Of a stretch of 64,000 nt of DNA, positions 48,001 through 52,426 are shown one piece after another. Location: NCBI GenBank assembly GCA_002502365.1, contig DAOJ01000065.1, positions 7,547 through 71,546 of the forward strand, read 5' to 3'. This DNA is from Euryarchaeota archaeon UBA106 (GTDB lineage: Archaea > Thermoplasmatota > Poseidoniia > Poseidoniales > Thalassarchaeaceae). A program made the translations under genes and the position numbers. Numbering within the stretch: the first letter of the stretch is position 1; each line of letters begins with the position of its first letter. The notes beneath the pieces are model-generated. The model worked only from the letters and a program-made list of their open reading frames with translations, did not search any database and was not told the DNA's origin.

Positions 48001-48822
48001 ATGGTGGAAACTACAGGTGTTTCTTGGGGAGATTGTTCGATAGACCTCTCATTCCCTAAGCCAAGGTTGTCGTCCGTTCTTCTCATTGATCAGAACACTC
48101 AGGATTTTCAGAGTGTATTGTTGAGAATGGTTGCCAATGAATTAGAATCATCTAGACCTGTACACTGGATAGATGGAGGTATGTCATTCGATCCATCTCC
48201 ACTCCTTCCTCTGTTACGAATGCGTAATTGTGACACTCTAAATCCTCTGAGAAGTTTTCACATATCTCGAGGATTTACAGCACATCAAACAGTATCTATC
48301 GTAAAGAGGTTGGCTGATGAGGCTAAATTAAGTCCTCCTCCTGATCGAATAATTAACGGTCGGCTAATTATTATTTCAGAAGTATCAAGGATGTTCATGG
48401 ACTCACAACTTAAGAAACCAGAAGGTCGCTCTTTGTTAACGGAAACACTTGAGCGTTGCAGGGCCTTGAGTAAGGATTCCGAGTCCTTAGTGATAATCAC
48501 TTCAAGTCGTAATTCATCACCACCTCTTAGTAAGGACATGCGTCATATTTTGAAACGATTTTCAGATGACACTCTGAGAATCAGCAATCTTTTATCTAAA
48601 AACCGTGATAGAAGTTTTGTTAGGAAAAAACTGCATTTACTCTCCATTGATAAGGAGGTTATTTGGGCAAATTTACCAGTAGGTCAAACTTCACTTCTAG
48701 AGTTTCGTCATAACCAAGAATCTAGGCTAGATTGTCTCATCGAACCGTTAGCCAGAAGCTCTTCACTCCAACCAAATGGAGAAAGGATAGCTGTCGCTGC
48801 TCGAACTGCCAATCGTGTATAG
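48001..48822 (+). CDS. RadB/RecA-fold paralog with degenerate Walker A (putative pseudo-ATPase)
   Basis: MVETTGVSWGD (cf. RadB MLSTGVKSLDE). VHWIDGGMSFDPSPL (cf. YVDTEGGFSPERL). RLIIISEVSRMF Walker-B-like. But the P-loop position reads LIDQNTQDF instead of GxxSGKTT. Confidence 0.55.
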   Translation: MVETTGVSWGDCSIDLSFPKPRLSSVLLIDQNTQDFQSVLLRMVANELESSRPVHWIDGGMSFDPSPLLPLLRMRNCDTLNPLRSFHISRGFTAHQTVSIVKRLADEAKLSPPPDRIINGRLIIISEVSRMFMDSQLKKPEGRSLLTETLERCRALSKDSESLVIITSSRNSSPPLSKDMRHILKRFSDDTLRISNLLSKNRDRSFVRKKLHLLSIDKEVIWANLPVGQTSLLEFRHNQESRLDCLIEPLARSSSLQPNGERIAVAARTANRV

Positions 48823-51095
48823 AATTCTGTATCTCCTTTCTCCTCTGAAATTGAATCTGTCGAAAATTCTATTTCTGATTTCAATCTGACTCTATCTACA
48901 GGATTCTTCCTATTCCATCCTGTTACAGCAAAGTGTATTTTTCTTCCTGGAGGTGTGATTTGATTCAATTCCTTAGAACGTAGAAGAGCGCCTGCTGTTA
49001 GATTCATAACACGATGATTTCCAGCTTCATATCTTACTCTTCTAGCTACAATTAATTGCTCCAGTGGAATTTCTCCACGCTTCATAAGAGAAATTTCAGT
49101 CACAAGTCTTTGTGCAGCTATTTCGGGACCAATTCCAAATGGATCATTTGCTAAGTCCTCTAACATATTCTCCTGTAATTTCCTAATCCAATAACAGGTT
49201 GAATGTTGACGCAATTCTATACCTCTGACCTTCCATTCATCACCTATCTTTGCATAATACTTAGTCAGGGCACCTACGCCTGTAGTTCTGTTCGGAATAA
49301 AAGCAATCCAGTCATATTCGTATTCCAATTCTAGTGGTATTCCAATTAATACTTCAATTCTTTCAATCAAGCGTTGGTATGATTTGCGCTTTTCTTCTTG
49401 ACTTCTATCCTCACGGTCTTTAATCCAAATAGCATCAACTATCGCGTGTATACAATCCCACCCTTCCTTATTTGCTTCTTCAATTGTGGTTAGGAGAATT
49501 TCACGAGACCAAGCGCAAATTGCTTCGTGACATTCGATACGACCAAATCGGGCATTCCGATAACCAGTATATCCAAAACAGGTAACTAAAATCCACTTGA
49601 GAACGTTTTGCCTTCTGTCCCATGAATCTCCTTTTTTTCTTCTTCTTGCTTTCAGAGAATTTCTTCTTTCGATTATAGGTGCTACGACCCTTCCAAGGAA
49701 TCCATGCTTACGAGTGCAAACATGTAATCCAAGTTCGGGAGCAATTAATTTTCTATGTTCGTCATTTTTTATTCTTTTTTGAATTTCATAAGAGGCAGCT
49801 AAAACATCCAGTGGTAATCTCCCATCTTTCATCTCGTAATTTCCAATTTTTGGATTACAGCATGAGCAATTCATAGTTTCAGGACTTATGTTTCTAGTGG
49901 CAATAATACTAGGGAATAAACTTGCAAAATCAAGTTCTATTGCTCCTTCATGAACTCCAACAATTGGGTCGAGATACAATCCCCCTCTGTCTGCTAAAAT
50001 TAATTCATCAGCATTTTTCAAATCCTCAGGTCTGTTCTTTTTCCAAGGAATTAGGACACCATCTTCCATTGATTGTCTTATTTGCATGGCTGATATCGCG
50101 GAACCAGGAGAGAGTCTAGACAAATCGGCGGCAGGCAAACCGGAAGTTCTTGCTAATTCCATTATCCCTTCTATACCTCCTTCCTTACCTATGAAGGAAC
50201 GCTTCATGTCTATGTGTAATCTACCTTCTAGGGGATGGTACGCTTCTTTTCTCATAAGGCGTCCATAACTCCAATCTACTCTTTCTTTTGTTCGTGGACT
50301 ACTGTCGCTTCCGTTCCTACTAATGTCGAGATTCATTTCAGATTTTTGAGCTAGACGAATCAAAGCGGGAATATCTACACTGTCTCCATCATAGGTTATT
50401 ACGATATCAGGGTCAATTTCTTTCATTTTTTTTTGAAAATCATTCAACATATGTGCTGAACATGTATATGCTTCTGAAATTAAATTGTAACTGATTTGTT
50501 TTTCAGAATTTATAATTCCTCTATCCAATATTTTGATGCTTGAAATCGGTGCGTCAAATTTCCTTTTTCCATTTGTATCGTAACAATTAACTCTAATCTC
50601 TACTATTCGTAAAGGTGGAAATTCCCAATCTACTTTGTTTCTCGTATCTAAAGGAATTATTCGTTTGCCACAAATCCGTACTCTTCCAAATGGATGTGTT
50701 TTGAGATCTAACAAAAACCTCTGGGAAATCTTTGGGTCCACAGAAAAAATTTCAAAATTTTTCCAAGAACCATTTGCATCAATAATTTCAGCGATTTTTA
50801 CAATCTTCGATATTTTTTGCAATTTAACTGCCAAAACCTCAACTTTTCTCTCTGATTCATGAGATGTACGATGTTTTTCCAATTTTAATGAAATTGGACC
50901 AAATGGCCTTTGGTATTCCGGTCTTGAAAGAGCCCCAGCTAATTCTCTAAGTCTGTGTGGTTCCCCTTTAACGTATATTGTGAAGAACCATGGGGTCATG
51001 ATATGTCTAATTTCTCCGTCATCCATTTTTATCCAAAGGCACATGCATTCACTTTTGTTATCTAAATGACAGTCGATTATCCATCCCTCATTCAT
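48708..51095 (-). CDS. polB: Family B DNA polymerase homolog, divergent; Exo I, Exo III and motif C degenerate
   Basis: Motif A [19 protein letters not shown]. Exo II [13 protein letters not shown]. KxY [11 protein letters not shown]..RGIE present. But Exo I YDTNG (FDIET expected), Exo III QSMEDG (Y lost), motif C AIVDAI (YGDTDS expected). Confidence 0.75.
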   Translation of the reverse strand: [795 protein letters not shown]

Positions 51096-51375: not shown

Positions 51376-51427
51376 TTTCTTTTTGAAGACAGAGAGTTAT
51401 TTTAGAGAGTAAAAGTGAAACAGATTA

Positions 51428-52426
51428 TCAGAGTTTTCTCGGGTTTGTCCAACGTGAATCTGCAGGAGGCCTTGTTATTGCGAGGTAATTCCAGGAGCCT
51501 TCATTATTTACAGGATGTAACCAAATTTTGTTAACACCTGAAGCTAATCTAGATGCTAGGCAGGCACCAGCCCAGTTCTTTGGCGCCTCATCTGGTAAAA
51601 CTACTAGGTATGGAGCGTGGTCATCTCCTATGCGCTTTTCATAACATCTCCATTTGGAACCATACTTGAATCCAGGTCTAATCACAAGACCTCTATCTAG
51701 TAAATCTAAGAGAATTAAAGCACCCTGGCTGAGTGGTGACTTACCATCCACAATTTCACTGGCTATCGTATCCAAAAAAATGCCTTCTTCAGTAGGTATG
51801 CCTAATTGTTCTATTTCCCAATTTTCGGATGGGAAAATCATACCGTCCGCAGAGTTAATTCCATCAGATAAGTTTGGTAATTTTTCACCTAATCTTTCCT
51901 CTTTGAAAATACCTAATGGAGATTCAGATGATAACTGGTAGCTAACGACACTAAGTTCTTCATCTACTATCATTACTTCTGGAATCCTGTTTGAGTTTCT
52001 TACCTCTACAGCCCAATTATGTAATTCGGCTGGGTTAAGCATTTCTGAATCTAAAAACCATCTGACTTCAGCAGTTGGTTGAGAATCTTTTGGGTGAGAA
52101 TTCGATGGCCACCTACACGCCCATGTTTGAGGTTGATAATCTAAATCAAAAAGATCTAGATTTCCCGTAAGTACAACCTTATTCCCTGGGACTCTCAAAG
52201 CTTCAAGAATGCAATACTCTTGTAGTAGCATACCGTTCATGGAAAGTGCATTTGTTTTCCAATCATTATCTGGCAATTCTATATTTCGGTGGTGGTGGAC
52301 AAAAAGTGTCTCCGCAGGAGATAGAGCTAGACTTCCATTTTTCAAAAGTCTCCCAATTACTGACTTTTGCCAGAGCCTTTGTGAGGCGGGGCCATCATAT
52401 TCCCAAACCTCAGGAGTGCCGCCCAT
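51428..52426 (-). CDS. endA: tRNA-splicing endonuclease (EndA), two-domain homodimeric type
   Basis: C-terminal catalytic domain LLDRGLVIRPGFKYGSKWRCY...GDDHAPYLVV fits the EndA L..RG..V+.G.KFG.DF..Y...H signature. 332 aa suggests an N-terminal degenerate repeat plus a C-terminal catalytic repeat. Confidence 0.6.
   Translation of the reverse strand: MGGTPEVWEYDGPASQRLWQKSVIGRLLKNGSLALSPAETLFVHHHRNIELPDNDWKTNALSMNGMLLQEYCILEALRVPGNKVVLTGNLDLFDLDYQPQTWACRWPSNSHPKDSQPTAEVRWFLDSEMLNPAELHNWAVEVRNSNRIPEVMIVDEELSVVSYQLSSESPLGIFKEERLGEKLPNLSDGINSADGMIFPSENWEIEQLGIPTEEGIFLDTIASEIVDGKSPLSQGALILLDLLDRGLVIRPGFKYGSKWRCYEKRIGDDHAPYLVVLPDEAPKNWAGACLASRLASGVNKIWLHPVNNEGSWNYLAITRPPADSRWTNPRKL

Follow-up and report, generated by a model that had tools for sequence, protein, structure and literature searches.

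A PolB2, PPB2 and iRadA locus in a Marine Group II archaeon and a conserved element upstream of its genes

INTRODUCTION

In archaea, genes for the family-B DNA polymerases of the PolB2 group are tightly linked to genes for two further proteins, the small helical PPB2 (arCOG07300) and iRadA, which is paralogous to RadA and has a dead ATPase site (Makarova 2014; Timinskas 2025). Here, we describe such a locus in a stretch of 64,000 nucleotides (nt) from Euryarchaeota archaeon UBA106 (GCA_002502365.1, DAOJ01000065.1). This whole stretch is called the window below, and all coordinates are window positions. The main finding is a correction of annotation, namely, that the three genes should be named polB2, ppb2 and iRadA and that the polymerase should not be called dead. 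The one possibly new part of the locus is a conserved element upstream of the genes.

The PolB2 group has been defined by an unconserved Exo I, a missing Exo III, a motif C with one Asp and a conserved His, and a D(K/R) motif peculiar to the group (Kazlauskas 2020). These polymerases were predicted to be inactive in 2008 (Rogozin 2008), a prediction overturned by experiments on Dpo2. The enzyme of Sulfolobus islandicus, with IID in its motif C, incorporates nucleotides robustly, is exonuclease-free and poorly processive, and efficiently extends mismatched and lesion-paired termini; the activity data come from S. islandicus and S. solfataricus (Feng 2022). Furthermore, Dpo2 is required for damage-induced mutagenesis (Feng 2020/2022). 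The PolB2 system is already known in Poseidoniales as well. Operons of this order have been catalogued as group '3b (PPB2-PolB2-iRadA)', with EHR76801/EHR76800/EHR76802 and MBL6742771/2/0 as entries, and complexes of PolB2, iRadA and three PPB2 copies from Poseidoniales have been modelled with ranking scores of 0.83 to 0.87 (Timinskas 2025). Poseidoniales entries were not found in the supplements of Kazlauskas 2020.

RESULTS

The polymerase

The region holds four open reading frames (ORFs), namely, one of 795 aa, one of 95 aa, endA and a convergent one of 283 aa. The 795-aa ORF (polB2, 48708..51095, minus strand) encodes a family-B DNA polymerase, as the initial annotation had it. It matches the Pfam families DNA_pol_B (3.7e-17) and DNA_pol_B_exo1 (2.2e-8), its best solved relatives are Thermococcales PolB structures (4e-42, phmmer), and its AlphaFold2 (AF2) model, with a mean predicted local distance difference test score (pLDDT) of 77.6, superposes on the KOD, 9°N and Tgo enzymes at template-modelling (TM) scores of ~0.7. 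Judged by its sequence, the protein is an ordinary member of the PolB2 group and not a novel kind.

The motifs were aligned to Pfu PolB, whose reference sequence was verified to be identical to PDB 3a2f chain A, with phmmer and with MAFFT together with 22 homologues, and both methods agree. In motif A (49902..49934, minus strand), D389 corresponds to Pfu D405 and is kept, and the steric-gate Tyr (Pfu Y410) is replaced by F394. Motif B (49560..49598, minus strand) is of the PolB2 type, with K500 kept and V504 at the position of Pfu N492. Motif C (49428..49451, minus strand) is likewise of the PolB2 type and reads IHAIVDAI; its IHAIVDA lies opposite Pfu LYIDTDG, with H550 for the Tyr, I552 for the first Asp and D554 as the second Asp. 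The KxY motif is preserved as K612-Y613-Y614. These readings agree with the initial annotation, which had described a preserved motif A with a Phe at the steric gate, an altered motif B, a motif C with a single Asp and an intact KxY. Neither the phmmer nor the MAFFT alignment with Pfu PolB shows an intact DTD or DxE. Among 23 homologues of 43 to 77% identity, D389, K500, H550-A-I-V-D554 and K612-Y613 are all invariant. The Asp of motif A and the distal Asp of motif C are taken here as the metal ligands.

The steric gate (F394, 49917-49919, minus strand) is Phe in all 23 Marine Group II (MGII) homologues and Tyr in the PolB2 fragments of Sulfolobales, Archaeoglobus, Methanothrix, Halorubrum and Methanomassiliicoccus.

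The exonuclease region (50217..50597, minus strand; MAFFT alignment) is decayed. At the Exo I equivalent, IRVNC (residues 167-171, 50583-50597, minus strand), both acidic residues are gone, Pfu D141 being replaced by R168 and E143 by N170. The initial annotation had correctly seen the loss of the metal-binding Glu at Exo I; its register was five residues off, as it read the site as YDTNG, and FDIET of the reference in fact lies opposite IRVNC. The Exo II motif YDGDSVD (50373-50393, minus strand) is preserved, as had been reported, and retains its Asp, D241. At the Exo III equivalent, AYHPLEGRL (50217-50243, minus strand), the aligned positions read AYHPLE-G (285-291), with Pfu Y311 replaced by His and D315 opposite a gap. 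The QSMED (341-345) first proposed as Exo III was misplaced, since it aligns with Pfu KAYER, well downstream. In addition, ~45 residues of the Pfu exonuclease domain are missing. With the residues of Exo I and Exo III lost, the proofreading site of the window polymerase is, on this alignment, gone, and the initial annotation was right to call proofreading lost.

The remnants of this site differ between clades. The MGIIa homologues P0075 and P0100 carry E-x-E at the Exo I D-x-E position (LEMEF and LELEF), and in P0075, P0100 and P0119 the Exo II Asp is lost, being W or V. The MGIIb proteins, including that of the window, show the reverse pattern. The exonuclease site has decayed differently in the MGIIa and MGIIb clades.

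Membership in the PolB2 group follows from the motif pattern, which is that of the published definition. A canonical proofreading PolB (B3/B1) has an intact DxE at Exo I, YxxxD at Exo III and DTD in motif C, whereas the window protein has none of these. Reference sequences for PolB2, PPB2 and iRadA were taken from the supplement of Timinskas 2025, in which the PolB2 references are N-terminal fragments of ~400 aa. PolB2-specific signatures are common to the window protein and the PolB2 of S. islandicus, Acidianus, Archaeoglobus, Methanothrix, Halorubrum and Methanomassiliicoccus. One of them is the beta-alpha segment with the D(K/R)GG motif (residues 346-372, 49980..50060, minus strand), which aligns with IIIPKIVPRVEKLRRLENIMMADKGG of S. 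islandicus. Its ADRGG (368-372) lies opposite ADKGG of S. islandicus and SYTGG of Pfu, and D369-R370-G371-G372 are invariant in the 23 homologues. The beta-alpha segment before ADRGG aligns with S. islandicus IIIPKIVPRVEKLRRLENIMMA, and the AF2 model places a strand and then a helix at 347-368 with low confidence, as expected for a segment that becomes ordered on binding. This region of PolB2 has been described as the one that contacts iRadA and PPB2 (Timinskas 2025). Likewise, the window motif B aligns with the PolB2-type motif B of S. islandicus, KWILVASFGYLGYRNSLFGKIE, and IHAIVDA of motif C with LHSIIDS. In bit scores, the window protein reaches 279 with the catalogued Poseidoniales PolB2 fragment and 232 with that of Methanomassiliicoccus, versus 113 with 560 aa of the Pfu B3 enzyme, which supports a place within the B2 clade indirectly. 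The best NCBIfam models, NF004418 (1e-120) and NF004416 (1e-102), fall below their own cut-offs. The initial annotation had rightly placed the protein in a previously described family of 'inactivated' archaeal polymerases, which is PolB2 (Rogozin 2008).

Two further features of the protein were observed. Residues C410, C412 and C413 are invariant and C460 is conserved in at least 90% of the 23 homologues (residues 409-451 correspond to 49743-49871, minus strand). This CxCC...C cluster recurs in the PolB2 fragments of Halorubrum and Methanomassiliicoccus, while only two Cys are found here in Pfu and Sulfolobales. The cysteines flank a ~35-aa insertion that is specific to MGII and modelled at low confidence; the cluster is a possible metal site. 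At the C terminus, the PIP-box-like (PCNA-interacting protein) motif QSSLDSWL (48711..48734, minus strand) aligns with the C-terminal QVGLTSWL of Pfu, presumably the PCNA-binding PIP box of that enzyme.

The partner genes

The 95-aa and 283-aa ORFs gave zero local Pfam or NCBIfam matches, even at E values up to 10, and both identities were established with the published sequences and a precomputed Pfam label, PF26485/DUF8156. A hidden Markov model (HMM) of six published PPB2 sequences from outside Poseidoniales found a single match among the 1012 ORF segments of the window, which was the 95-aa ORF (E=8.9e-17). As mechanically called, this ORF starts at a GTG at 51375 (51088..51375, minus strand). 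The HMM alignment begins at residue 1 at an internal MGRTVATWR, and MGRT is a highly conserved N terminus of PPB2 (Timinskas 2025). PPB2 proteins measure ~85 to 90 aa, and Arg3 and Arg9 belong to their conserved N-terminal arm. Of 20 homologues, 17 have a length of 85 aa, and PF26485 is present in every one. From the start of the HMM alignment and the length of the homologues, we place ppb2 at 51088..51345 (minus strand), an 85-aa gene read from the internal ATG. The 10-codon extension to the GTG (51346-51375, minus strand) is probably not translated. The initial annotation had listed a co-directional, overlapping ORF of 95 aa of unknown function; the small gene and its overlap stand, and it is 10 codons shorter and, by its match to the published family, a PPB2.

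The convergent ORF is listed at 283 aa from a TTG at 47971 (47971..48822, plus strand). Its closest homologues are 273 aa long and start at the equivalent of the ATG at 48001, which gives an iRadA gene at 48001..48822 (plus strand). An HMM of seven published iRadA sequences from outside Poseidoniales again matched a single ORF in the window, this one (E=2.6e-15). The gene had been called RadB-like; profiled against PDB, the family matches Pyrococcus furiosus RadA at 4.9e-10 versus 0.47 for RadB, and we assign the gene to iRadA. The AF2 model (pLDDT 81) matches folds of Rad51 paralogues, DMC1, RecA and RadA at E values of ~1e-12 and TM scores of 0.6 to 0.77, and it corresponds to the RadA/Rad51 ATPase core without the N-terminal helical domain. 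The Walker A pattern GxxGxGK[ST] of the P-loop was not found in the sequence; on manual reading, the expected P-loop region is LIDQNTQDFQ. At the position of the RadA Walker B Asp, the family has a near-invariant Ser.

A PIP-box-like motif also lies in iRadA, namely, QTSLLEF (48685..48705, plus strand), just before a 38-aa tail, and it resembles the C-terminal QxxLxxF of published iRadA as well as the clamp motifs that Timinskas 2025 describes. Both window proteins therefore carry such motifs, PolB2 at its C terminus and iRadA internally; it has been reported that both proteins of one operon rarely carry a clamp motif (Timinskas 2025).

Arrangement of the genes and their neighbours

Two overlaps reported by the initial annotation are as it stated: ppb2 overlaps the start of polB2 by 8 nt, and the 3' ends of iRadA and polB2 overlap convergently by 115 nt. 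Relatives were gathered by a scan using one genome per species, in which polymerase relatives are encoded in at least 564 stretches; the closest species representative is a metagenome-assembled genome (MAG) with 96% identity (L007). Each of the 59 Poseidoniales loci that had sufficient flanking DNA shows the order PPB2>PolB2><iRadA, and 20 loci of other orders (Methanomassiliicoccales, Methanoperedens and others) have iRadA>PPB2>PolB2 on one strand. Upstream of ppb2 lies endA (51428..52426, Pfam tRNA_int_endo), which had been taken as a member of the operon. It is found there in only the 8 closest of ~60 related loci and is absent from the more distant ones. It is a lineage-specific neighbour, not an operon partner.

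The convergent overlap recurs in the MGIIb clade, where L001, L004 and L007 have 115 nt, L005 has 121 nt and L002 has 52 nt; in the MGIIa loci it is ~0 to 30 nt. The 38-aa tail of iRadA (48708-48822) is wholly antisense to the conserved PolB2 C terminus, with third codon positions opposed. Its sequence looks conserved and is predicted to be disordered (AF2). The iRadA stop lies opposite the codon of the near-invariant PolB2 Tyr759, and 29% of 38-codon windows are open by chance. Selection keeping the tail open was considered and set aside because conservation of the tail is inseparable from the constraint on PolB2, which the tail may simply mirror.

The homologues of the locus are labelled Poseidoniales or Thalassarchaeaceae, and the window is MGII (MGIIb-like) chromosomal DNA. 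Housekeeping genes in it include those for RNA polymerase subunits B, A' and A'', termination factor FttA (KH and beta-CASP domains) and a type IA topoisomerase (1811-10169, 33790-35736, 60054-62339), as well as a transhydrogenase; with these neighbours, the locus belongs to a cellular chromosome and not to a virus or plasmid. The polB2 gene is the sole PolB homologue within the 64 kb by tblastn. Genes for Orc1/Cdc6, SRAP, a Y-family polymerase, PolD or a second PolB were not found in the window, of which 20 of the 38 ORFs of at least 250 aa and the four genes flanking polB2 were scanned, with tblastn in addition.

Next to iRadA, the window has an M6 peptidase gene. A gene for a Y-family (IMS/DinB-like) polymerase is adjacent in 24 Poseidoniales loci. 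It comes immediately after iRadA in MGIIa relatives (L006 8308-9444 and 24 further loci, for example, L024, L026, L027, L038-L048, L052-L056 and L075), and in four MGIIb loci an SRAP gene, for abasic-site protection, is found beyond iRadA (L001 9291-9932, L002, L013 and L015). These neighbours fit a translesion theme. One of the loci, L043 (NZEQ01000045.1), is filed as a 'Verrucomicrobiales bacterium' MAG and carries a Poseidoniales-type PolB2 (48% identity), iRadA and a Y-family polymerase; its public filing under Verrucomicrobiales probably results from an error of binning.

A conserved element upstream of the genes

When the 90 to 120 nt upstream of PPB2 were compared among relatives, an 11-nt core, TTTCACTTT(C/T)A, emerged from otherwise unalignable sequence. 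The core consists of two tandem ANTTTC-like hexamers. The loci considered were L001-L059 and L075 for the regions upstream of PPB2 and iRadA and L060-L086 for the region upstream of iRadA. In the window, the candidate regulatory site is TTTCACTTTTA (51410..51420, minus strand), 75 nt upstream of the ppb2 ATG and the only exact match in the 64 kb; a degenerate copy, ATTTACACTTTAA (47923..47935, plus strand), lies ~76 nt upstream of the iRadA ATG.

Upstream of PPB2, the core is present with at most two mismatches in 46 of 51 unique Poseidoniales loci and with at most one in 28 of 51; the corresponding figure for shuffled or random windows is ~3%. Its position is also constrained, 58 to 78 nt before the ATG in 45 loci and at -118 in one. 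An unbiased count of 7-mers gave the same picture: among the 15 that occur most often, 13 fit the core or the T variant that is common in it, TTTCACTTTTAC, with 25- to 60-fold enrichment, and TCACTTT occurs in 36 of 52 upstream regions versus 1.2% of background windows. A similar copy lies upstream of iRadA, with at most two mismatches in 21 of 50 loci, 59 to 112 nt (mostly 59 to 77) before the start, and it is perfect in the closest relative, L007. Furthermore, a related CAYTTTCA precedes the leading gene of the operon in 9 of 19 cases from other orders, including Methanomassiliicoccales (iRadA-PPB2-PolB2), versus 2% of controls, with a binomial P of ~3e-11 in which several related loci are counted. 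The upstream element is likely a regulatory site.

DISCUSSION

Which three genes these are, what motifs they carry, how they are arranged and how they are conserved among relatives can be read directly from the genomes. Public records mostly leave the homologues of the three proteins without a name or list them as 'hypothetical protein' or a generic 'DNA polymerase', and the start of PPB2 tends to be miscalled. Since the homologues are unnamed and the NCBIfam scores fall below cut-off, the locus is systematically under-annotated.

We estimate a probability of roughly 85% that PolB2, PPB2 and iRadA form a 'mutasome', in which the polymerase would be an active, exonuclease-free extender of low processivity acting in damage tolerance. 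Catalysis, complex formation and clamp binding are attributed to the window proteins here by analogy with their family. In such a scheme, ppb2 and polB2 would be expressed as one translationally coupled unit through their 8-nt overlap, and iRadA as a second, convergent unit. By analogy with the published models, the products would assemble into a PolB2-iRadA-(PPB2)3 complex, with the beta-alpha/DR segment of PolB2 binding iRadA as RadA subunits bind one another and the N-terminal MGRT arm of PPB2 inserted between the two. The complex may be tethered to PCNA by its PIP-like motifs, and the occurrence of these motifs in both PolB2 and iRadA makes such tethering plausible. PolB2 would then extend mismatched or lesion-paired primer ends without exonuclease activity. 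The conserved upstream element suggests that the two units are co-regulated and possibly damage-inducible.

Several observations weigh against this proposal. The published activity data are all from Sulfolobales, whose enzymes share only the core motifs with the window protein and have a far more reduced exonuclease domain. Motif B is without the Asn of KxxxNSxYG, the steric-gate Tyr is Phe, and the MGII proteins carry their lineage-specific insertion of ~35 aa between motifs A and B. The AF2 monomer is of low confidence in the fingers and linker (residues 353-373, 394-464 and 508-525). In addition, the Y-family polymerase and SRAP genes seen in relatives are both absent from the window by ORF scan and tblastn.

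Among the alternatives, the one that survives best is that the protein is a catalytically dead paralogue, retained solely for a structural or scaffolding role. Such was the interpretation published in 2008 (Rogozin 2008) and 2014 (Makarova 2014), and it is the sense in which the initial annotation spoke of a possible loss of polymerase activity. In its favour are the replacement of three residues, namely, the first Asp in DTD, the Tyr of motif C and the Asn of motif B, and the loss of Exo I and Exo III. However, the Asp of motif A, the distal Asp of motif C, the Lys of motif B and KxY have stayed invariant over 43 to 77% identity, and Dpo2, whose motif C is of the same IID type, polymerizes robustly. 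The invariance of D389, K500, HAIVD and KxY argues for a working polymerase site. Together with the active Dpo2, these motifs make the other suggestion of the initial annotation, an unusual catalytic variant, a better reading than loss of activity, which is outdated; we regard a dead paralogue as improbable.

Still less probable is that polB2 encodes a diverged main PolB of the cell, replicative or lagging-strand. It is indeed the only PolB homologue in the window, and its closest solved relatives are the B3 enzymes of Thermococcales. The missing proofreading site, the full set of PolB2 signatures and the presence of the PPB2 and iRadA partners speak against such a role, and B2 polymerases usually co-occur with other PolBs and have been described as repair enzymes (Kazlauskas 2020). 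Finally, a decaying pseudogene or a remnant of a mobile-element or viral polymerase, for which the degenerate catalytic motifs and the PolBs encoded by magroviruses of the same hosts could be cited, is effectively refuted by conservation: the ORF is full-length, at ~800 aa in hundreds of species-level genomes, with invariant motifs, conserved synteny, housekeeping surroundings and no shift in base composition.

The upstream element may be of more consequence than the corrected annotation. In Sulfolobales, ANTTTC is the DNA-damage-responsive element bound by Orc1-2, and induction of dpo2 depends on Orc1-2 (Sun 2018); a literature search for ANTTTC gave only Sulfolobales studies. The hexamer of the element described here is that of the only characterised archaeal DNA-damage operator. 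Whether it is the operator of an Orc1-2-like damage response reaching far beyond Sulfolobales, and co-regulating both units of the locus, is a tentative suggestion that we consider less likely than not. If true, genome sequences would suffice to read off the damage regulon of uncultured marine archaea. MGII archaea are uncultured and abundant in sunlit surface water, and the element offers a testable handle on the control of their response to ultraviolet (UV) damage.

The locus can be compared with several described systems. It shares with the Dpo2 mutasome of S. islandicus the D(K/R)GG motif and beta-alpha segment, the type of motif B (KWILV..FGY.GYRN..FG.IE) and of motif C (H-x-I-[IV]-D), the loss of the exonuclease catalytic residues, an MGRT PPB2 together with a RadA paralogue lacking Walker A, and the gene order PPB2-PolB2-iRadA. 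In contrast to Sulfolobales PolB2, the window protein is ~240 aa longer, retains most of the N-terminal and exonuclease fold with an Exo II-like YDGDSVD, and has a Phe instead of a Tyr gate, the CxCC...C cluster and the insertion of ~35 aa between motifs A and B. Unlike in S. islandicus, iRadA is encoded on the other strand, with an overlap at the polB2 3' end, and the host is mesophilic and marine.

The catalogued Poseidoniales operons have the same lineage, the same three genes and a PPB2 N terminus of MGRT(V/S)P.WR; the window polymerase matches the EHR76801 fragment at 3.3e-86. These examples are MGIIa-like, whereas the window is MGIIb-like and falls in another family-level clade, with a PolB identity of ~44%. 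The long convergent overlap (105 to 121 nt) and the conserved iRadA tail are found only in the MGIIb clade, unlike in the catalogued MGIIa-like examples.

With the Thermococcales PolB (B3; Pfu, KOD, Tgo and 9°N), the window protein has in common the fold (TM ~0.7), the Asp of motif A, the Lys of motif B, the distal Asp of motif C, KxY and a QxxLxxWL at the C terminus. It differs in the loss of Exo I DxE and Exo III YxxxD, a partly deleted exonuclease domain, IVD in place of DTD, a changed motif B and its dedicated PPB2 and iRadA partners. More remote functional analogues, should the family-based reading hold, are eukaryotic Pol zeta, a B-family extender in damage tolerance with a dead exonuclease domain, and the Pol V mutasome of Escherichia coli (UmuD'2C-RecA), which serves damage tolerance together with a subunit of the RecA family and an accessory protein that is small and oligomeric. 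Unlike the system described here, Pol V is a Y-family polymerase and its RecA subunit is an active ATPase, so that the likeness is one of working and not of family.

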